A DNA stretch of 64,000 nucleotides from positions 888 to 64,887 of the forward strand of contig CALJEL010000013.1 of the NCBI GenBank assembly GCA_938074335.1, in the 5' to 3' direction. Shown here piece after piece: positions 6,187 through 52,104 of this stretch. Position numbers and translations under genes: made by a program. Numbering within the stretch: the stretch's first letter is position 1; every line of letters starts with the position of its first letter. Source of the stretch: an uncultured bacterium. Its GTDB lineage: Bacteria > Nitrospirota > Thermodesulfovibrionia > Thermodesulfovibrionales > CALJEL01. The notes under the pieces are model-generated. The model was not told where the DNA came from and searched no databases. It worked only from the letters and a program-made list of their open reading frames with translations.

Positions 6187-7803
6187 TTAAAATAGTCCCA
6201 TTTGTTTTTCTTTCAGGGGTCTATCTGGTATAAAGATGTCCTCTATGCATTGGTTATTGATTTCTGAAAGAAAAAGAGAGGCCTTTTGAGCCCCTGTCTT
6301 TCCATATAACGATCTCTTTCTTGCATGAATCAGAAACAATTCCTCCTTTGCCCTTGTCATGGCCACATAGAGGAGCCTTCTTTCCTCCTCAATATCTTCT
6401 GCTTCAAGAGGTATAATACCCTGTTCAAGTCCTGCTATAAAGACTACCCTGAACTCAAGACCCTTTGACATATGCATGGTAAGAAGCCTCACACCCTCTG
6501 CCTCAAGTCTGTCCTCTTCAGGACCTGTGAGTTTAAGCCAGGTTATAAGGTCATCTGATGATGAGGGCATATAATTATCAAACAGTGAATTCAAAGCCCT
6601 GTATCTCTCTCTGAGCTCCTGAAGCAGTAATTCCCAGGGTTTATCCTTATTTTCCTGAATATAACTTAATATCTCTTTCAGGGTCTCTGAAAAGACCCTT
6701 CCCATTACATAACAGGGTATACCTGTCTTTTTTAATTCAGTCTCAAGGGCAAAAACCTGATTGTTTGTCCTTAAAAGCACAGCAAAGTCAGAAAGACTGT
6801 AACCACCCCTTTCAGCCTGAAGACCCCTCATAAGACTGTAATGACTCATCCCTCCAAGCCTCTTTTCAATCTCATGAGCTATAAACTCGATCTCTGCCCT
6901 GTCATCAGGCACAGATACAAGCCTTAAAGGAGGGCCTTCTTTTTTGATACTTACAATCTTTTTCGGTATCCTTTCCTTATTTTTTTCAATGAGGCTCTCA
7001 GAGGCCTTTACTATAAAGGCCTGGGACCTGTAGTTTTTATCAAGGACAATCCTTATTGCCTGAGGATATTCCTTTTCAAAGTCCAGAAAGTTCTTAACAT
7101 TTGCTCCCCTGAAGCTATAGATTGACTGGTCAGGATCACCTACAGCAAATATCCTTTCAATAGAAAATGCCTTAAGCAACCTGTATTGAAGGGGATTTAT
7201 ATCCTGATATTCGTCCACTATAATATATTTGATGGTCTTTCTGTATCTGTTTTGATTTGATGGATCTTTAAGAAGATCTATTGCCCTGATTATAATGTCA
7301 TCAAAATCAAGGGCCCTTTTTTTCTGAAGAGCTTCCTGATAATCCTCCATTATCTTTTTTATCCTGTCATCAGGCTCATCAAGAAGATTCTTTATCCTTG
7401 ATATCCTTTCAATGATAGAGGATGGCCTTCCTGAACCGGAGACCCCTTTTATAACCTCAAGCTGTTCCTCTCTGCTAAGGATAGAAAATTCATCTCCCCA
7501 TGTATCTTTTATAATCCTTAAACCAAAAAGATGGAATGTCCCTGCAAATAATCCCTTCAGATCTCCATGAAAGATCCTTATCCTTTCTTTAAGCTCTGAG
7601 GCAGCCCTGTTAGTAAAGGTAATTGCCACTATTTCCTCAGGCCTTGCTCCCTTTGCTAAAAGATAGGCTATCCTTCTTACAATGGTAAGGGTCTTCCCCG
7701 TGCCAGGACCGGCAACAACAAGCACAGGGCAATCAGGTGCTCTGACAGCAAGCCTCTGGGATTCATTCAGGCCTTCAAGGATTCTTTCTATATTCATGGG
7801 CAA
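6187..7803 (-). CDS. Compact UvrD/Rep/PcrA-family SF1 helicase (538 aa)
   Basis: LNESQ..AV, Walker A AGPGTGKT, IIVDEYQDINPLQY, VGDPDQSIYSFRGA, KNYRS, MHMSKGLEF, LLYVAMTRAKEEL. All SF1 motifs are present but the protein is about 180 aa shorter than classical UvrD. Confidence 0.8.
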   Translation of the reverse strand: MPMNIERILEGLNESQRLAVRAPDCPVLVVAGPGTGKTLTIVRRIAYLLAKGARPEEIVAITFTNRAASELKERIRIFHGDLKGLFAGTFHLFGLRIIKDTWGDEFSILSREEQLEVIKGVSGSGRPSSIIERISRIKNLLDEPDDRIKKIMEDYQEALQKKRALDFDDIIIRAIDLLKDPSNQNRYRKTIKYIIVDEYQDINPLQYRLLKAFSIERIFAVGDPDQSIYSFRGANVKNFLDFEKEYPQAIRIVLDKNYRSQAFIVKASESLIEKNKERIPKKIVSIKKEGPPLRLVSVPDDRAEIEFIAHEIEKRLGGMSHYSLMRGLQAERGGYSLSDFAVLLRTNNQVFALETELKKTGIPCYVMGRVFSETLKEILSYIQENKDKPWELLLQELRERYRALNSLFDNYMPSSSDDLITWLKLTGPEEDRLEAEGVRLLTMHMSKGLEFRVVFIAGLEQGIIPLEAEDIEEERRLLYVAMTRAKEELFLIHARKRSLYGKTGAQKASLFLSEINNQCIEDIFIPDRPLKEKQMGLF

Positions 7804-11827: not shown

Positions 11828-12295
11828 TCAGTGGCCAGTTTTTTCAGCACCCATAAGGGAATAAACTTCTTTCATTAATTCATCTATATCCTTAAACTGT
11901 CGGTAAACAGAGGCAAATCTCACATAGGCAACCTTGTCAAGTCTCTTGAGGTTCTCCATGACATCCTCACCTATCCAGCTGGATGGTATCTCCTTCACGC
12001 CGAGATTCATCAATCTCTTTTCTATAGCATCTACTATACCTTCAAGTGTATCTATTCCTATGGGTCTCTTCTCACAGGCCTTCTTCAAACCATTGAGTAC
12101 TTTATTGCGTTCAAAGGGCTCACGCCTGCCATCTTTTTTAATAACAAGGGGAAGGACGTCCTCTACCCTTTCATAGGATGTAAACCTCTTCTTGCAGGCA
12201 AGACATTCCCTCCTTCTCCTTATAGCATCTCCCTCTTTAGAGGTTCTTGAATCAATCACCCTGTCTTCAAGATTTCCACAAAAGGGACATCTCAT
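11828..12295 (-). CDS. nrdR: Transcriptional repressor NrdR
   Basis: MRCPFCG...VIDSR...CL.C..RFTSYE zinc ribbon plus ATP-cone. Confidence 0.9.
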   Translation of the reverse strand: MRCPFCGNLEDRVIDSRTSKEGDAIRRRRECLACKKRFTSYERVEDVLPLVIKKDGRREPFERNKVLNGLKKACEKRPIGIDTLEGIVDAIEKRLMNLGVKEIPSSWIGEDVMENLKRLDKVAYVRFASVYRQFKDIDELMKEVYSLMGAEKTGH

Positions 12296-12316
12296 AAGAC
12301 ACCTTCTCTACATCCT

Positions 12317-13582
12317 TTATCTTGATGCTGTCTCAACAAGCCTCTTTTCATAAACTGGAAAGGCATGACATAACTCTCTTACCCTTTCCCTTATCTTCAG
12401 AATCCGCTCCTTATTTTTGATATTCTGTAAAACCTCTGTAATGAATTCAGCAATCCTGACCATTTCCTCCTCGGTCATTCCACGCGTGGTGACACAGGGC
12501 GTGCCAAGCCTTATACCGGCCGTTATGGATGGAGGGGTATCATCAAAGGGAATGGAATTCTTATTCACTGTAATGCCAGCTAAATCAAGGGCCTCCTCTG
12601 CATCCTTACCCGTTATTCCAGATCCCCTGAGGTCGACAAGGAAGAGGTGATTATCTGTCCCACCGGATATGATCTTGAATCCCCTCTTAATAAGCTCCTG
12701 GGCAAGCCTCTTTGCATTCTTTACAATCTGTGCCTGATACCGCCTGAATCTTTCTGTAAGCGCCTCTTTAAAGGCCACCGCCTTTGCAGCAATAACATGC
12801 ACAAGGGGACCACCCTGTATCCCAGGAAATATCATTTTATCTATCACCTTTGCATACCTTTCCTTGCACATTATCATACCACCCCTAGGACCCCTCAGGG
12901 TCTTATGTGTTGTGGTGGTAACAAAATCAGCATGGGGCACAGGAGAGGGATGAAGACCTGCTGCAACAAGACCTGCAATATGGGCAATATCAGCGAGAAG
13001 ATAAGCACCCACCTCACGGGCTATTTCAGCAAATTTCTCAAAGTCTATTATCCTTGAATAGGCACTTGCACCAACAATTATTATCCTGGGTCTGTGCTCT
13101 ATGGCAAGTCTTTTAACCTCATCATAATCTATATATCCATTTTCATTGACGCCATAAAATACAGTTTTATAAAGCATGCCAGAAAAATTTGCTGAAGCAC
13201 CATGGGAAAGATGTCCTCCATGTTTCAGGCTCATGCCGAGGATTGTATCACCTGGTTTTAAAAAACCAAAAAGCACAGCCATGTTTGCCTGAGTTCCTGA
13301 ATGAGGCTGGACATTTACATGTTCTGCTCCAAAAAGCTCCTTTGCCCTCTGAATGGCAAGGTTCTCTACCCTGTCAGCAAATTCACAGCCACCGTAATAA
13401 CGCCTGCCTGGATAGCCCTCTGCGTATTTATTGGTAAAGATAGAGCCCTGTGCCTCAAGCACAGCAGGGCTTACATAATTTTCTGAGGCTATGAGAACAA
13501 TCTTCTCCTCTTCTCTCAAGATCTCTCCCCTGATCGCCTCATAAATATCAGGGTCAATAAATCTCAGGTTTTCGTAGTCCAT
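12317..13582 (-). CDS. glyA: Serine hydroxymethyltransferase
   Basis: LIASENY.SPAV...[13 protein letters not shown]...[14 protein letters not shown]. Confidence 0.95.
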
Positions 13583-14028
13583 CCTGAATACCTCTCTTCT
13601 ATTGATTTAATCTTCTGAAGTCTTCTCAAGTGTCGTCCACCCTCAAACTCTACTGTCATCCATGTCTTTAAGATCTCTCTCGCAAGGTCAATACCCACAA
13701 TCCTTCCACCAATAACAAGCACATTTGCATCATTATGAAGCCTTGAGAATCTCGCAGTATAAAGGTCGTTACATAAAGAGGCCCGTATATCAGGAAATTT
13801 ATTTGCTACAATGGACATCCCTATCCCTGTCCCACAGATAAGGACACCCCTATCTACGGTCTTTGATGATACAGCCAGTGAAACCTTTTCCCCAAAATCA
13901 GGATAATCAACAGACTCAGAACCCCCTGGTCCGAAATCTATACATTCATGACCCATTTCCTGAAGAACCTTCTTTAATTCTTCTTTGAGCTGAAAACCTG
14001 CATGGTCTGAGCCTATAGCAACTTTCAT
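13564..14028 (-). CDS. rpiB: Ribose-5-phosphate isomerase B
   Basis: [15 protein letters not shown]...[14 protein letters not shown] is the RpiB/LacAB family pattern. Confidence 0.9.
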
Positions 14029-43554: not shown

Positions 43555-44509
43555 AGAACCACCTGTAAGAACAGTCCTTACGATAGGTAATTTTGACGGA
43601 GTCCATATGGGACATCAAAGAATTATAAAGCAGGTGGTATCTTCAGCAAAGAGAATAAAAGGTACATCAGTGGTTATGACCTTTGATCCCCATCCAATGA
43701 GATACCTTCAACCAGAAAAGGACCTACCTCTCCTCACACTTTGTGATGAAAAGGCCAAGATAATTGAGAAACTGGGTATCCAGATACTTCTCTGCGTAAA
43801 ATTTGACCAATCCTTTGCAAGCCTTGAGCCGGAGGAATTTATTAAAAAGATACTTGTGGATAAGCTCGCCGTAAGAGAAATAATAATAGGCAAGGACTAT
43901 AGATTTGGAAAGGCCAAAAAAGGAGATGTAAAGCTTCTTAAGAGGGAAGGAAATAAATATGGCTTCAGGGTTGAGGTGGTAACGCCTGTAAAGATTAAAG
44001 GTGAAATAGTCAGCAGTAGCACAATTCGCACACTTATAAAAAAAGGCGAAGTGAAAAGGGTAACCGATTTTCTTGGCAGGCCTTACAGCATTGAAGGCAC
44101 GGTTGTAAGGGGCACAGGAAGGGGATCAACCATACTGGGGTTTCCAACTGCAAATATCCTTTCAGGGGCAGAATTAATACCAAAAGAAGGCGTATATGCT
44201 GTTAAAGTTAAGATAGAAGAGTCTCCTGCGGGTAAAAAGAAAAAAGAAGACAGATTATTAAATGGTATAATGAACATCGGGACAAACCCGACTTTTGGTA
44301 ATCAGGAGCTCTCGCTGGAGGTTCATATACTTGATTTTAATGAAGATATACTTCACAAATTTATAAAGGTCTACTTTATTGAGAGACTGAGAAATGAAAA
44401 AAAATTTTCCTCTCCTGATGCCCTGAGAAAGGCAATAAAAAGGGATATTGAAAAGGCAAGGCTCCACCTTCAGGGCAAGGTTTTTACAGAGGGTCCACAT
44501 AAGCCCTGA
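43526..44509 (+). CDS. ribF: Bifunctional riboflavin kinase / FMN adenylyltransferase
   Basis: IGNFDGVHMGH...GFPTAN...G.MNIG.NPTF. Confidence 0.9.
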   Translation: MEIKRLEDIKEPPVRTVLTIGNFDGVHMGHQRIIKQVVSSAKRIKGTSVVMTFDPHPMRYLQPEKDLPLLTLCDEKAKIIEKLGIQILLCVKFDQSFASLEPEEFIKKILVDKLAVREIIIGKDYRFGKAKKGDVKLLKREGNKYGFRVEVVTPVKIKGEIVSSSTIRTLIKKGEVKRVTDFLGRPYSIEGTVVRGTGRGSTILGFPTANILSGAELIPKEGVYAVKVKIEESPAGKKKKEDRLLNGIMNIGTNPTFGNQELSLEVHILDFNEDILHKFIKVYFIERLRNEKKFSSPDALRKAIKRDIEKARLHLQGKVFTEGPHKP

Positions 44510-46319
44510 CATCAAGTCCCTCTTCTTTTAAAAGACCCATGAGATCTTCAAGAGGCTTATTAGAAATAGCCTTTCCTATCCTCAGCAGATAGATTGCCTC
44601 TTGAGCCATTGCCTTCTTTCTCTTTTTTAATTTTATCTGCCTTACTGAACTATCCTTGATGCCCCTTAACATGGTAATTACCTTATCATGGTCAACAGGC
44701 TTTCTGGAGAAGATCCTGAGTATTACAAATCTTGAATAGGGTGGCAGATTGTTGAGTTTTCTCATCTCCAACTCAGAGATAGCAAAACCTGTATAATCAA
44801 GCCTTCTTATATAATCAAAGGCTTTGTATCCAGGCATCCTTGTCTGAATTATTATCTTACCGCCCTGCCTGATCCTGTCCCTAAGATAATAAACCTCATG
44901 GAAAAGCCTTTCAGAGGCCCTGTAATCAGGTAAATTAAGAAGGATATCTGCATCAAGAAGTACACCAAGAGAAAAATTATAATTGATATTTTCCTTTCTT
45001 GAACTCGTTGATATGACAATACCCTCCTCTGACCTCACAGGCAGTAAACTCAGTCTATCCGCCAGGACCTCCCTTATCCTTTCAACTCCTCCAGAGACAT
45101 GTTCAAGCCCTGTACCCTTACAATAGGTACATACTGAGGGGATGTTCTTAATACTATCACATAACCTGCATCTTAAGATCTTCTTGTCCCTGTAATATAC
45201 AAAAATACCTCCGCAATCACACCTCAGGACATTATTGCAATCCCTGCAATAAATAATTGAATAACCGGTTCTTGGAAATGATAAAAATACCTTTTCATCT
45301 TTTTTAATAATATTTTCTATTTGTCTTAAAAGACCCTCAGGGAGTATCTCAAATCCTGATGAGGTTTTTTTGACTATCTTACTGATAATTATAGAAACCT
45401 TCTTCTTACCTTCAAAGGTATCAGGATCTCTGGAGGACTTTTTATCCACCCTGTTCATTTCCTCTTTCACCAGCCTGTATTTACCAATCCTGCAATTATA
45501 AAAGGATTCAATAGACGGATGTTCTGAAGAAAGATAAACCGGAATCTTTTCAGTATAAGCCCTCATAACCGCCACATCCCTTGCATTAAAATAAGGAGCC
45601 TCTTCCTGCTTGTAAGAAAAAGAACACTCCTCAATAACAATAATCCTGGATGGCTTAAAAGGTGCAAAAACAGAATTCCTTGTTCCTATAACAATGGGCT
45701 GGCAATCCCCGTAAAAGGCCTTAAGAATTCTTATATAATTCTCCAGTAGCACCAACCTCTTGAGTCTACTATGATAAAGGACTAACCTCTCACCAAAAGA
45801 ATGGGCCAGACTTTTATAGACCTCCTCTGCAGATTCCACTGTCGGTACAAGGATAATTGCGCCATCTCTACCATTATCTTCTAATAACCTCAGTAATCTG
45901 CCAGTCCTTAAGAGATCCTCCATAATAAGATAAGCACTGTACCGGGAAACAGGTCTTACGGGAGTTTTTACATTTATTTCTATATCAAGCTTCTTTTTAT
46001 TAAATATAAAGGAAGGGATCATGCTTCTGAGAACCACACCTTCTTCAGCTATATAATATCCTGACATCCATTCAAGAAGGCTTATGAGGGTACTGCTGAG
46101 CAGAGGAAACTCAAAAACAATCTCCCTGACAGGAAGCGCCTCTCCCTCAAAGTCTACCCCACACCTGAGGACCACACCTCTTAAAAAACTCTTTCTTAAA
46201 GGTGCTTCCACAAGCATACCAGGCCTGATCCTGTCCCTCAGCGATTCCGGTACAGAATAGGTCAATGCGCCGAGCCTTAATGGAAAAACAATATCACAAT
46301 ATCTGGCTTTGCTATTCAT
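44484..46319 (-). CDS. priA: PriA-like primosomal protein N' with degenerate helicase motifs
   Basis: PriA-like N-terminus (YCDIVFPLRLGALTYSVPE), the conserved block IVIGTRNSVFAPF and the Cys-rich zinc region CRDC...C.C...CRLC...CTYC. Walker A, the DExH box and motifs III, V and VI are all replaced (see finding). Confidence 0.7.
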   Translation of the reverse strand: MNSKARYCDIVFPLRLGALTYSVPESLRDRIRPGMLVEAPLRKSFLRGVVLRCGVDFEGEALPVREIVFEFPLLSSTLISLLEWMSGYYIAEEGVVLRSMIPSFIFNKKKLDIEINVKTPVRPVSRYSAYLIMEDLLRTGRLLRLLEDNGRDGAIILVPTVESAEEVYKSLAHSFGERLVLYHSRLKRLVLLENYIRILKAFYGDCQPIVIGTRNSVFAPFKPSRIIVIEECSFSYKQEEAPYFNARDVAVMRAYTEKIPVYLSSEHPSIESFYNCRIGKYRLVKEEMNRVDKKSSRDPDTFEGKKKVSIIISKIVKKTSSGFEILPEGLLRQIENIIKKDEKVFLSFPRTGYSIIYCRDCNNVLRCDCGGIFVYYRDKKILRCRLCDSIKNIPSVCTYCKGTGLEHVSGGVERIREVLADRLSLLPVRSEEGIVISTSSRKENINYNFSLGVLLDADILLNLPDYRASERLFHEVYYLRDRIRQGGKIIIQTRMPGYKAFDYIRRLDYTGFAISELEMRKLNNLPPYSRFVILRIFSRKPVDHDKVITMLRGIKDSSVRQIKLKKRKKAMAQEAIYLLRIGKAISNKPLEDLMGLLKEEGLDVRAYVDPL

Positions 46320-46345
46320 AAGAATATTATGTCATAATAGAAACT

Positions 46346-48076
46346 ATGATGGCTAAAAAATTAATCTTCCCTGTGCTCCTGTGTGTGGTTACTCTAACAG
46401 CCTGTGCCTCTCTGAGGCAGACTGCCTCGTTAAAGGAGGAAAAACTTGAATTACCAGATGAGGAGTTATCGCAGCTTCTGCCCGGGGAGTTTGAAAATTC
46501 ATATTTTTATTATATCCTTGGTTACCAGGCAGAGCTTCAGGGTGACTGGCAAAAGGGACTGTATTATTACTCTAAGGCTGAATCCCTTGATCCCGCCTCA
46601 GTCTTTTTAAAGCTTCAGATAAGTAATCTCCTTATAAGGACTGGTAAGATTGAGGAGGCTATCCTTAAAGCAGAAGAGGCAATAAAGATCAATCCTGATT
46701 ATGTGCCAGGGCTTTTGCTTCTTGGTCAGCTTTATAATGCCCAGAGGAGGTCAGAGGATGCCATAAAGACGCTTTTAAAGGTTATAGAAAAAGAACCCTC
46801 CACTAAGGAGGCCTATATATTCCTTGGAAGTATCTATGCCTCCCTTGAAAGATTTGATGAGGCTCTCAAAATCTTTGAAAATTTAAGTAAACAATTTCCT
46901 GATGAACCCCTTGCCTATTTTTATTCAGGCGCCATCTACCTTGAAAAAAATGAAACCGAAAAAGCAGAAAAGGCCTTTAAAGAGGCAATAGAGAAAAAAG
47001 ACGATCTTGATGCCGCCTATTTTTACCTCGGATTGATCATGGAGATGAGAGAGAATCTAAAAGAGGCAGAAAGATATTATAAAAAGACTATTGAGCTTAA
47101 TCCACATAATCTTCAGGCAAGACAGAGGCTCAGCCAGCTTTATATAAAACAGAAATCCTACGGTAATGCGATTACAGAATTAAAAGAGCTCCTCAAACTT
47201 TTACCCCAGGACCTTGATGCCCACATGAGGCTGGGACTTCTTTACATGCAACAGGAAAATTATGAAAAGGCAATTGAGGAATTCAGACTCATCCTCCAGA
47301 GGAAGCCTGATGCTATAGAGCCGAGATACTATCTTGCCCTCTCTCTTGGTGAACTTGGCAAAAATGATGAGGCAATGAAAGAATTACAGAATATCCTTGA
47401 GTATGACCCAAACAATATAAATGCATTACTTAATCTTGGACTTTTTCTCTCAAGACAGAAAAGATATACCGAGGCACTTGAGGCATATGAAAAACTGCTT
47501 AAACTCATACCTGACAGACCTGACCCTTATCTCTTCACAGGATCACTGCATATTCAGCTGAATGAGACCGAAAAGGCTATCACTATCCTGGAGGAAGGGA
47601 TCAGAAAATTTCCTGAACATCCAGATATGCACTTTAATCTTGCAGTTGCCTATGAAAAGGCAAAAAGATTTAATGACATGGAAAAGGAGCTCAGGAAAAC
47701 CATAGAACTTGACCCTGAGCATTATGAGGCAATGAATTATCTTGGCTATTCCTTTGCAGAAAGAGGGATAAACCTTGATGAGGCCCTTAAACTCATACAG
47801 AAGGCCCTTGAGCTGAAACCAGACAGTGGACACATAATTGATAGCCTTGCCTGGGTCTATTATAAGATGGGTAAACTCAATGAGGCTTTAAGAGAAATCA
47901 AGAGGGCAATTGAGAAACTCAAAGATGACCCTACCCTTTTTGACCACCTTGGAGATATATACGATGCCCTTGGTATGAAGGACCTTGCAAAAGAGGCATG
48001 GAAAAAGGCCCTTGAATTTATAGATAAAGAACCTTCCTTGAAAGAGGGGATTGAAAGGAAATTAAATACCCCCTGA
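46346..48076 (+). CDS. TPR-repeat lipoprotein
   Basis: Signal peptide with lipobox LTAC, then more than 12 TPR-like 34-aa repeats. Confidence 0.75.
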   Translation: MMAKKLIFPVLLCVVTLTACASLRQTASLKEEKLELPDEELSQLLPGEFENSYFYYILGYQAELQGDWQKGLYYYSKAESLDPASVFLKLQISNLLIRTGKIEEAILKAEEAIKINPDYVPGLLLLGQLYNAQRRSEDAIKTLLKVIEKEPSTKEAYIFLGSIYASLERFDEALKIFENLSKQFPDEPLAYFYSGAIYLEKNETEKAEKAFKEAIEKKDDLDAAYFYLGLIMEMRENLKEAERYYKKTIELNPHNLQARQRLSQLYIKQKSYGNAITELKELLKLLPQDLDAHMRLGLLYMQQENYEKAIEEFRLILQRKPDAIEPRYYLALSLGELGKNDEAMKELQNILEYDPNNINALLNLGLFLSRQKRYTEALEAYEKLLKLIPDRPDPYLFTGSLHIQLNETEKAITILEEGIRKFPEHPDMHFNLAVAYEKAKRFNDMEKELRKTIELDPEHYEAMNYLGYSFAERGINLDEALKLIQKALELKPDSGHIIDSLAWVYYKMGKLNEALREIKRAIEKLKDDPTLFDHLGDIYDALGMKDLAKEAWKKALEFIDKEPSLKEGIERKLNTP

Positions 48077-50838: not shown

Positions 50839-51554
50839 GTGGCCATAAGGTCAAGTAAAACAAGCCTCAGGGCCTTAAGAGGATCTTCCTCACGCATTAT
50901 AGCCCTGCCAAGGACAATGTAGTCTGCCCCTGCCCTGAAGGCCTCTCTCGGCGTAACAGTCCTTTTCTGGTCATCAGGAGGATTCCAGGAGAGTCTTATA
51001 CCCGGCACTACAACAAGAAAATCCTTTCCGCAGGAATTCTTTATGCTCTCTATTTCCTGACCGGAGGCAACAACACCGTCAAGACCTGCATTAAAGGCAA
51101 GCCTTGAGAGGTGTTTTACATGTGTCCTTATGCTGTGAGGTATACAGAGTTCATTTTTAAGTGCCTCGGAGGAAAGGCTTGTAAGTACCGTAACCCCTAT
51201 TAATTTAGGTCTTGGAAGATTCTCCTTAAGACAGGTCTCCACAACTGCATCCCTTGTTTGTCTCATCATATCAAGACCACCTGAGGTATGCATGTTCAGC
51301 ATAAATACACCAAGTCTGGTAACAACCTTTGCAGTCCTGCTTACCGTATTTGGTATATCATGGAGTTTAAGGTCAAGAAAGACCTTCTTTCCTTTTTCTG
51401 TTATCCTGCGGATAATCTCAGGGCCTCCTGCTGTAAAAAGCTCAAGACCAACTTTAAATATCTGAATGTCCTCAGAAAACCTGTCAACAAGCTGAAGGGC
51501 ATACTCAGGTTCATGGGTATCAAGGGAAAGTATTATGCGTTCTCTTACAGGCAT
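50835..51554 (-). CDS. pyrF: Orotidine 5'-phosphate decarboxylase
   Basis: LSLD......FKVG.ELF...DLKLHDIPNT. Confidence 0.9.
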   Translation of the reverse strand: MPVRERIILSLDTHEPEYALQLVDRFSEDIQIFKVGLELFTAGGPEIIRRITEKGKKVFLDLKLHDIPNTVSRTAKVVTRLGVFMLNMHTSGGLDMMRQTRDAVVETCLKENLPRPKLIGVTVLTSLSSEALKNELCIPHSIRTHVKHLSRLAFNAGLDGVVASGQEIESIKNSCGKDFLVVVPGIRLSWNPPDDQKRTVTPREAFRAGADYIVLGRAIMREEDPLKALRLVLLDLMAT

Positions 51555-51555
51555 A

Positions 51556-52104
51556 TCAGACCTTTGGAAGCGTTATCCCCTTCTGTGACTGATATTTCCC
51601 TGCCTTATCGGCATAGGACACCTCGCAGATCTCTATGCCCTTTAAAAATATGAGCTGGGCTATACCTTCATTTGCATAGATCCTTGCCGGAAGCGGGGTT
51701 GTATTGGATATCTCAATAGTGACATGGCCTTCCCATTCTGGCTCAAGGGGGGTTACATTCACTATCAGGCCACATCTCGCATAGGTGGATTTTCCAAGAC
51801 ATATGACAATAACATCCCTTGGTATCCTGAAATACTCCACAGAATAACCAAGGACAAAAGAGTTAGGTGGTATGATGCAGACATCTCCCCTGAATTCAAC
51901 AAAGCTATTAGGGTCAAAATTCTTCGGATCAACCACAGTGGCATTTATATTGGTAAAGATCTTAAACTCATCAGCAATCCTCATGTCATAACCATAGGAA
52001 CTTACACCATAAGAGATAACACCTTCTCTTACCTGCTCAGGACTGAAAGGCTCTATCATGCCTTTTGCTGCCATCTCCTTTATCCATCGGTCATTCATCA
52101 CCAT
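51556..52104 (-). CDS. dcd: dCTP deaminase
   Basis: SYGYD.R......GKS.YARCG......PLEP.WEG..T.E. Confidence 0.9.

Follow-up and report, generated by a model that had tools for sequence, protein, structure and literature searches.

Here, we describe a gene of an uncultured bacterium from the order Thermodesulfovibrionales (phylum Nitrospirota), which is probably the PriA orthologue of its lineage turned pseudohelicase, with ATP-independent fork recognition and primosome assembly as its most likely function. The gene occupies positions 44484-46319 on the minus strand of a 64,000-nucleotide stretch of contig CALJEL010000013.1 (GenBank assembly GCA_938074335.1), and this whole stretch is called the window below. 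Its open reading frame (ORF) starts with ATG and encodes 611 aa without interruption, exactly as described in an earlier note made from the letters of this DNA (the original prediction). There, the gene had been read as a PriA homologue with every ATPase/helicase motif replaced and the zinc-binding cysteines retained, maintained as an ATPase-dead scaffold of replication restart.

A PriA homologue with degenerate helicase motifs

The only Pfam domain detected in the protein is PF17764, the 3'-end-binding domain (3'BD) of PriA (E=1.9e-14, aa 17-102), and the Pfam scan of the 611 aa gave no significant match to DEAD or Helicase_C. The NCBIfam equivalog models for PriA match it (best 2e-75), with every score under the curated cutoff (213.9 against 230.35 for TIGR00595, and 254.5 against 813 for NF004066). 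Its closest PDB sequences are the PriA proteins of K. pneumoniae and E. coli (8e-41), in alignments that jump over PriA residues ~120-248, where the winged-helix (WH) domain and the Walker A region lie; the identity to these two proteins is 23% in the Foldseek comparison. From the above, together with the predicted fold described below, the assignment as a PriA homologue is borne out.

For motif mapping, the protein was aligned by MAFFT with E. coli PriA (Ec; NC_000913) and 33 relatives. Motif I, which is GVTGSGKT in E. coli (Ec 224-231), is replaced by MEDLLRTGR, with 6 residues fewer in the loop and helix region, and the GxGKT of Walker A with its lysine (Ec K230) is gone. Motif II, DEEH in E. 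coli (Ec 320-323), reads IEEC, so that the protein has no Walker B or DExH box in this place; only the middle glutamate is kept (E231, equal to Ec E322), and it is invariant among homologues. Motif III (GSATP) has become SSEHP, motif V (IGTQMLAKGHHF) has become ISTS--SRKENI and motif VI (QVAGRAGR) has become YLRDRIR, which leaves SSEH, STS--SRK and YLRDRIR where the consensus patterns GSAT, GTQM.AKG and QxxGRxGR are expected. The alignment thus reproduces and confirms the five replacements named in the original prediction (I, II, III, V and VI). Its word "every" goes slightly too far, as motifs Ia, Ib and IV are kept, and so is half of the aromatic-rich loop (ARL), namely KQEE.

We also considered that the P-loop, the DExH box or the arginine finger might have moved to another part of the protein. 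Relaxed regular expressions over the whole sequence found no GK[ST], G[KR][ST], DExH/D, hhhhD[DE] or QxxGRxxR, and a functional GxGKT or DExH at another position, which would have refuted the original prediction, is therefore ruled out. Taken together, alignment, locus and clade point to a PriA orthologue with non-functional Walker A and Walker B motifs, that is, a putative pseudohelicase.

Two tiers of degenerate PriA proteins in Nitrospirota

The relatives of this protein can be divided into three groups. Tier 1 (P0001-P0015) is 38-79% identical to it, with lengths of 589-663 aa and PF17764 as the only Pfam domain, and those of its members that have names are Thermodesulfovibrionales. For tier 2 (P0016-P0037 and P0039), the identity is ~30-34%; here the Pfam domains of the Cys-rich region (CRR) and the C-terminal domain (CTD) are found and the helicase domains are not, and the named members are Nitrospirota or Thermodesulfovibrionales metagenome-assembled genomes (MAGs). 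The third group consists of canonical short Nitrospirota PriAs, in which GVTGSGKT, DEEH and QLAGRAGR are present. All these relatives, from 79% down to ~30% identity, are intact ORFs. The member names that could be recovered belong exclusively to Nitrospirota/Thermodesulfovibrionales MAGs, with no isolates.

In order to assess the spread of such proteins, a profile search was run exhaustively over 1.84 billion representatives at 50% identity, and the best 150 matches were scored for motifs. All three motif signatures are missing in 72 of these 150, while at least four Cys pairs are kept in all 87 representative matches counted. In a rough neighbour-joining (NJ) distance tree, all degenerate proteins form one clade beside the canonical Nitrospirota PriAs, which fits a single ancient loss of the motifs, after which tier 1 was eroded further. 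The result is a graded series of forms, from canonical PriA to tier 2 (P-loop, the D and E of motif II, and motif VI lost) and on to tier 1, which has in addition a deletion in the second RecA-like lobe (HD2), a CxC pair and a divergent CTD.

The TIGR00595 score falls along the same series, from 617 in the canonical P0040 to 315-373 in tier 2 and 210-246 in tier 1. Because of this drop, one relative (P0005) has been deposited as "hypothetical protein". With tier-1 proteins at or below the TIGR00595 cutoff and at least one of them carrying this label, genomes of the clade can seem to be without PriA.

A column-by-column comparison covered 28 canonical PriAs, 23 tier-2 proteins and 15 tier-1 proteins. 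Among the 28 canonical sequences, the motifs that contact the nucleotide, namely I, II (D and E), III, V and VI, reach at least 90% conservation, and they are replaced in both degenerate tiers. The blocks that contact nucleic acid, namely motif Ia (VP), motif Ib (IVxGTRxAxFxP; GTR..F.P), SYKQEE, motif IV (xRxGY) and the block DxxLNxPD[FY]RxxER, are kept in all three groups. In the ARL, the KQEE and ARD parts are conserved, and the equivalents of W333 and Y335 are now P and F. In the E. coli protein, Q329, Q330 and E331 of this loop crosslink to fork DNA, and W333 and Y335 couple DNA binding to ATPase activity (PMC5175346). Judged by sequence, this pattern is the signature of a pseudoenzyme, in which substrate binding would be kept and catalysis lost.

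The segment filling the former P-loop, MED.L[KR]TG[KR], is itself conserved in tier 1 (P0001-P0012), and the filler of tier 2 is different (HAPSxxYExSF); each sub-clade seems to have fixed a filler of its own in the former nucleotide pocket.

Two candidates for additional degenerate forms were rejected. P0042 had appeared as an intermediate lacking motif VI, and a looser pattern finds QxxGRxxR in it; the "-B6" representatives (GVT[SA]SGKT) have ordinary P-loops, which were missed by the strict regular expression. The representative search also contains eight partly degenerate PriAs (P0302, P0324, P0346, P0348, P0357, P0364, P0387 and P0075), with Walker A lost or mutated (for example LHCI--SGR, GKPGSGKM, GPPKTGKT) and DEEx, a GSATP-like motif or GTQ partly kept. 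Such proteins may be intermediates, or ATPase function may have been lost independently in other lineages as well.

Domain architecture and predicted structure

An AlphaFold2 (AF2) model (m0698c62a8f52), built on a 96-sequence alignment, has a mean predicted local distance difference test score (pLDDT) of 88 and a predicted template modelling score (pTM) of 0.89. In a Foldseek search against PDB, the top nine matches are all PriA, with fork-bound E. coli PriA (8FAK) as the best one (template modelling score, TM, 0.80; E=3e-42), and the next families, Mfd, UPF1 and RecG, follow at ~1e-6. The model and these matches therefore predict that the whole PriA architecture is intact, including the 3'BD, two RecA-like lobes (HD1 and HD2), the CRR and the CTD. 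The protein has the 3'BD, two RecA-like SF2 lobes with a modelled PriA fold, and a CRR with four Cys pairs, as expected of a PriA. The coordinates of these features are summarized in Table 1.

In the 3'BD, residues Y21, G34, W84 and Y89 do not vary among the 96 homologues, and pLDDT by block is 91-96 over aa 11-100 and 73 for aa 1-10. It is 69-88 over aa 101-130, the region where a linker takes the place of the WH domain. The WH domain is absent from the 611-aa protein, and from the canonical Nitrospirota PriAs likewise. Values below 50 occur only at aa 287-304 and 318-321, within the insertion between the lobes. This insertion differs widely in length from one relative to another; P0013 has up to ~40 additional residues there, and P0014 and P0015 carry other inserts.

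The CRR lies within lobe 2 and contains four Cys pairs (C358/C361, C367/C369, C384/C387 and C397/C400), the second of which is CxC, not CxxC. All eight cysteines are invariant in the 96 homologues, degenerate and canonical, and the claim that the zinc-binding residues are retained holds for these predicted ligands. The remainder of HD2 has a deletion of ~25 aa between motifs IV and V and carries the conserved block DADILLNLPDYRASER. The CTD gave no match to Pfam PF18074, yet it is confidently folded in the AF2 model.

The AF2 model fits 8FAK (TM 0.80, root-mean-square deviation (rmsd) 5.4) better than the apo and ADP-bound crystal forms (TM 0.61-0.73, rmsd 7.8-8.9). This difference in modelled fit may hint at a constitutively "pore-closed" position of the CRR, and may equally be attributed to the WH domain missing in 8FAK or to AF2 bias.

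Table 1. Features of the priA-like gene in the window, with positions in the protein and in the DNA
Feature	Residues (aa)	Nucleotides	Strand	Basis
Entire priA-like ORF, putative PriA pseudohelicase	611 + stop	44484-46319	-	ORF, Pfam, NCBIfam, PDB sequence matches, AF2, Foldseek
3'-end-binding domain (3'BD)	1-105	46005-46319	-	PF17764, conservation, pLDDT
Short linker at the place of the E. coli WH domain	106-127	45939-46004	-	Alignment skips Ec ~120-195
RecA-like lobe 1 (HD1), motifs I, II and III degenerate	128-285	45465-45938	-	Alignment, AF2 model
Former Walker A/P-loop, MEDLLRTGR, no GxGKT, 6 residues shorter	133-141	45897-45923	-	Alignment, pattern scan
Former Walker B/DEEH, IEEC, invariant E231 the sole residue kept	229-232	45624-45635	-	Alignment, conservation
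Aromatic-rich loop/motif IIa (SYKQEEAPYFNARD)	235-248	45576-45617	-	Alignment, conservation; ARL residues per PMC5175346
Former motif III, SSEHP where GSATP stood	264-268	45516-45530	-	Alignment
Inter-lobe insertion, lineage-variable, low-confidence	~285-325	45345-45467	-	pLDDT, dN/dS, length variation
Cys-rich region (CRR), two predicted Zn sites	354-410	45090-45260	-	Invariant Cys, lowest dN/dS, alignment
Rest of lobe 2 (HD2)	411-525	44745-45089	-	Alignment, conservation
Motif V remnant, ISTSSRKENI	436-445	44985-45014	-	Alignment
Motif VI remnant, YLRDRIR	478-484	44868-44888	-	Alignment
C-terminal domain (CTD), divergent	526-611 + stop	44484-44744	-	Alignment, AF2 model

Selection on the priA-like gene

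The ratio of nonsynonymous to synonymous substitution rates (dN/dS) was calculated between the window gene and its 78%-identical orthologue in L001. It is 0.23 overall at an unsaturated dS of 0.48, with the lowest regional value in the CRR (0.09) and the highest in the inter-lobe insertion (0.52). For comparison, housekeeping neighbours in the same genome pair have dN/dS of 0.02-0.31 (median ~0.08). As an internal negative control, a spurious 121-aa ORF at 51288-51653 on the plus strand, antisense to genes of the pyrF/dcd region, gives 2.6 against L001. The priA-like gene is clearly under purifying selection. The view that it is maintained and is not a pseudogene is thus supported by intact relatives, in which no decay by frameshifts or stops is seen, by the dN/dS value, by conserved gene order, by a confident fold and by the selective keeping of DNA-contact motifs.

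Locus, synteny and copy number

The gene has a constant slot in tier 1: ispE and a gene for a ~570-aa TPR protein lie upstream in divergent orientation, and ribF-coaE-M16 peptidase-pnp-rpsO lie downstream in convergent orientation. In tier 2, the P0021 locus retains the upstream ispE/TPR pair and the P0017 locus retains the convergent ribF. Among canonical genes, that of P0040 is two small ORFs away from ribF, and that of P0185 (BMS3Abin09) has the same upstream genes as the P0040 locus (L007) with ribF absent. Of three canonical or tier-2 loci examined, two have the ribF adjacency. As the BMS3Abin09 locus is without ribF, canonical loci lend the synteny argument only partial support.

A second priA was searched for by tblastn of canonical P0040 against the 64-kb window, where only the priA-like gene itself matched. 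No priB, dnaT or dnaC is visible within the window, and no dnaB either. The named canonical PriAs come from BMS3Abin09 and the named degenerate ones from BMS3Abin08/Bbin06, which are different bins, and none of the named canonical matches among the best 120 listed is labelled Thermodesulfovibrionales. A degenerate orthologue at the ancestral priA locus is favoured, because of the shared locus, the position of the clade, the absence of a second PriA in the window and the separation of the two forms into different bins.

The layout of the locus is tight. A gap of 26 bp (46320-46345) separates the priA-like start from that of the TPR lipoprotein gene, which lies in divergent orientation and starts at 46346, and the 3' end of the priA-like gene overlaps the convergent ribF by 26 nt (44484-44509). 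The same tight layout recurs in L004, L005 and L008, with upstream gaps of 23-36 bp and a 33-nt ribF overlap in L008. Two face-to-face promoter-like sites with an extended -10 TG were noted in the region of the 26-bp gap, in a scan that is not above chance: around the priA-like gene, promoter and terminator matches are no more numerous than in shuffled sequence. The genes nrdR, glyA and rpiB are at 11828-14028 on the minus strand of the window, ~30 kb from the priA-like gene, and stand directly upstream of the tier-2 gene in BMS3Abin08/Bbin06 (L008/L009, 7848-9996). From this displacement, the locus has been rearranged between the tiers with the ribF adjacency kept.

Proposed function and alternatives

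We propose that the protein works as an ATP-independent restart scaffold. The PriA architecture would be retained, with the 3'BD, two RecA-like lobes, a CRR predicted to bind zinc, and the CTD. ATP would no longer be bound or hydrolysed, because the P-loop is gone, the Asp of Walker B and the catalytic Glu are replaced, and so are motifs III, V and VI. Abandoned forks and D-loops would be recognised through the 3'BD and the DNA-contact surfaces remaining on the lobes, presumably Ia, Ib, IV, the KQEE loop and the PD[FY]R..ER block. The single-stranded DNA (ssDNA) of the lagging-strand template would be held between CRR, HD2 and CTD, and the CRR could serve as a docking platform that recruits the replicative helicase DnaB and its loader. 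This proposal is made because the parts tied to fork recognition and partner docking are kept and the CRR is the most constrained. To this extent the original reading as an ATPase-dead restart scaffold is supported.

Several points weigh against it. The loss of ATPase activity is inferred from sequence, and DNA binding, DnaB recruitment and primosome assembly are inferred by analogy with characterised PriA proteins. The ~25-residue loss in HD2 and the divergent CTD without PF18074 imply that the pore and the partner surfaces may differ from those of E. coli. The gene evolves faster than most of its neighbours (0.23 against a median of ~0.08), so some relaxation or a change of function is possible. 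With 64 kb of the genome in view, a canonical priA may lie outside the window. Of the best 120 matches listed for canonical P0040, none comes from the named bins bearing degenerate forms, and most are unnamed. The NJ tree is only a rough, distance-based one, has no support values and includes no Deinococcus sequence.

Two of these points, the 64 kb of visible genome and a dN/dS above most neighbours, also speak for an inactivated extra paralogue standing beside a canonical priA and acting as a regulator, decoy or fork-protection factor instead of a restart initiator. The degenerate clade is moreover sister to the canonical Nitrospirota clade and not nested in it, and an old duplication could give the same picture. 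We consider this paralogue unlikely, since the gene stands in a priA locus akin to the one in its canonical relatives, no second PriA-like sequence is found in the window, canonical and degenerate PriAs with names are in different bins, and no named canonical match listed among the best 120 carries the Thermodesulfovibrionales label.

A new role is similarly improbable. In this case the protein would be a structure-specific DNA binder that does not load DnaB, for example in fork protection or remodelling together with another motor, or in another DNA transaction. Here the degeneration goes beyond what is needed to kill an ATPase (HD2 deletion, divergent CTD, the new MED.L[KR]TG[KR] and the CxC pair), and the TIGR00595 scores form a falling series (617, 315-373, 210-246). 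However, conservation is strongest in the 3'BD and the CRR, which are the parts used in fork recognition and partner docking, the model predicts an intact overall PriA architecture, and D. radiodurans PriA binds DnaB (PMC4504706), so that the more conservative reading as a restart scaffold suffices.

It is very improbable that the protein is still an active ATPase or helicase through a non-canonical nucleotide site. A second, weaker nucleotide site was proposed for E. coli PriA and never located (PMC5778457), and E231 is invariant; but nothing like a P-loop is present anywhere in the protein, all five nucleotide-contacting motifs are replaced together with replacements that differ by tier, and a K-to-R change alone abolishes the activity of E. 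coli PriA (PMC4504706, PMC5778457). Finally, a decaying pseudogene or annotation artefact, for which one could cite the scores under curated PriA cutoffs and the relative deposited as hypothetical, is hardly credible and was ruled out by full-length intact ORFs across dozens of divergent lineages and by dN/dS of 0.23 at dS 0.48, beside which stand the eight Cys and many other residues that are invariant and the confidently predicted fold.

Comparison with known PriA proteins

The PriA pseudohelicase as a kind is already known and experimentally characterised in Deinococcus-Thermus. The name was given by Lopper, Boone & Morrow (2015, PLoS One; PMC4504706) to PriA of D. radiodurans (DrPriA), in which GKT is changed to GRT and motifs I and II are poor; it has no ATPase or helicase activity and binds forks and DnaB. 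Non-helicase PriA variants in Deinococcus had been mentioned in the original prediction, correctly as this publication documents. The Nitrospirota protein resembles DrPriA in being a PriA orthologue with non-consensus Walker A and Walker B in which the remaining PriA architecture is kept; in both, the sequence predicts no ATPase or helicase activity, and restart would presumably proceed via fork binding and DnaB recruitment.

The two differ in lineage, since the present protein belongs to Nitrospirota/Thermodesulfovibrionales and to a clade beside canonical Nitrospirota PriAs, and in the depth of the lesion. In DrPriA the P-loop has only K changed to R, whereas in the Nitrospirota protein nothing of it is left and the region is shorter, other residues also stand in place of motifs III, V and VI, and ~25 aa of HD2 are lacking. 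The inactivity of DrPriA was demonstrated, and that of the Nitrospirota protein is predicted. The Nitrospirota lineage is apparently of independent origin from Deinococcus, because it groups with canonical Nitrospirota PriAs (in a tree with no Deinococcus-Thermus) and its lesion is different.

ATPase- and helicase-dead mutants of E. coli PriA recognise forks and assemble the primosome, and serve as the functional model for our proposal. PriA K230R (priA300) supports restart in vitro and, through the PriA-PriB pathway, in vivo (PMC5778457), and K230A loads DnaB in reconstituted reactions (PMC10175261). In the fork-bound structure, CRR, HD2 and CTD form a pore round the lagging-strand ssDNA, and a surface of the CRR docks the next primosome protein (PMC10175261). 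These mutants are single-residue laboratory changes of a canonical enzyme that works with PriB, DnaT and DnaC, whereas the Nitrospirota loss is natural, ancient and extends over many motifs. Compared with canonical PriA (TIGR00595/PRK05580; 4NL4, 6DGD, 8FAK), the Nitrospirota protein has in common the 3'BD, the two lobes, the CRR inserted in HD2 with four Cys pairs, the CTD, motifs Ia, Ib and IV and KQ(Q/E)E of the ARL, with a modelled fold at TM 0.80 to 8FAK. It differs from canonical PriA in the absence of motifs I, II (D and E), III, V and VI and of WH, and in scores under all curated equivalog cutoffs.

A review of 2017 named Deinococcus as the sole exception to the conservation of PriA motifs (PMC5778457), and full-text literature searches gave no report of a PriA pseudohelicase from Nitrospirota or Thermodesulfovibrionales. 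What is apparently new here is the occurrence in another phylum, with an origin that seems independent, a far deeper degeneration and a graded series of forms. The tolerance of E. coli for K230R makes the conservation of the helicase motifs in PriA puzzling. It is in our judgement evenly balanced whether an ATP-independent PriA is the sole initiator of restart in a large and ancient Thermodesulfovibrionales/Nitrospirota radiation, with a series that delimits the minimal reloading scaffold and with helicase activity dispensed with independently at least twice. If true, a whole bacterial order could persist through long evolutionary time on nothing but the scaffold function, and the natural series of deletions and substitutions marks the indispensable surfaces of PriA (3'BD, CRR, Ia/Ib/IV and the KQEE loop) against the expendable ones.

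Another helicase gene in the window

A short helicase of the UvrD/Rep/PcrA family is encoded at 6187-7803 on the minus strand of the window. This protein has 538 aa, noticeably fewer than the ~700 aa of typical UvrD/PcrA; its Walker A (GPGTGKT) is intact, and both the N-terminal and the C-terminal UvrD domain are complete. In a cell whose PriA would be without motor activity, it could act as an accessory fork motor.

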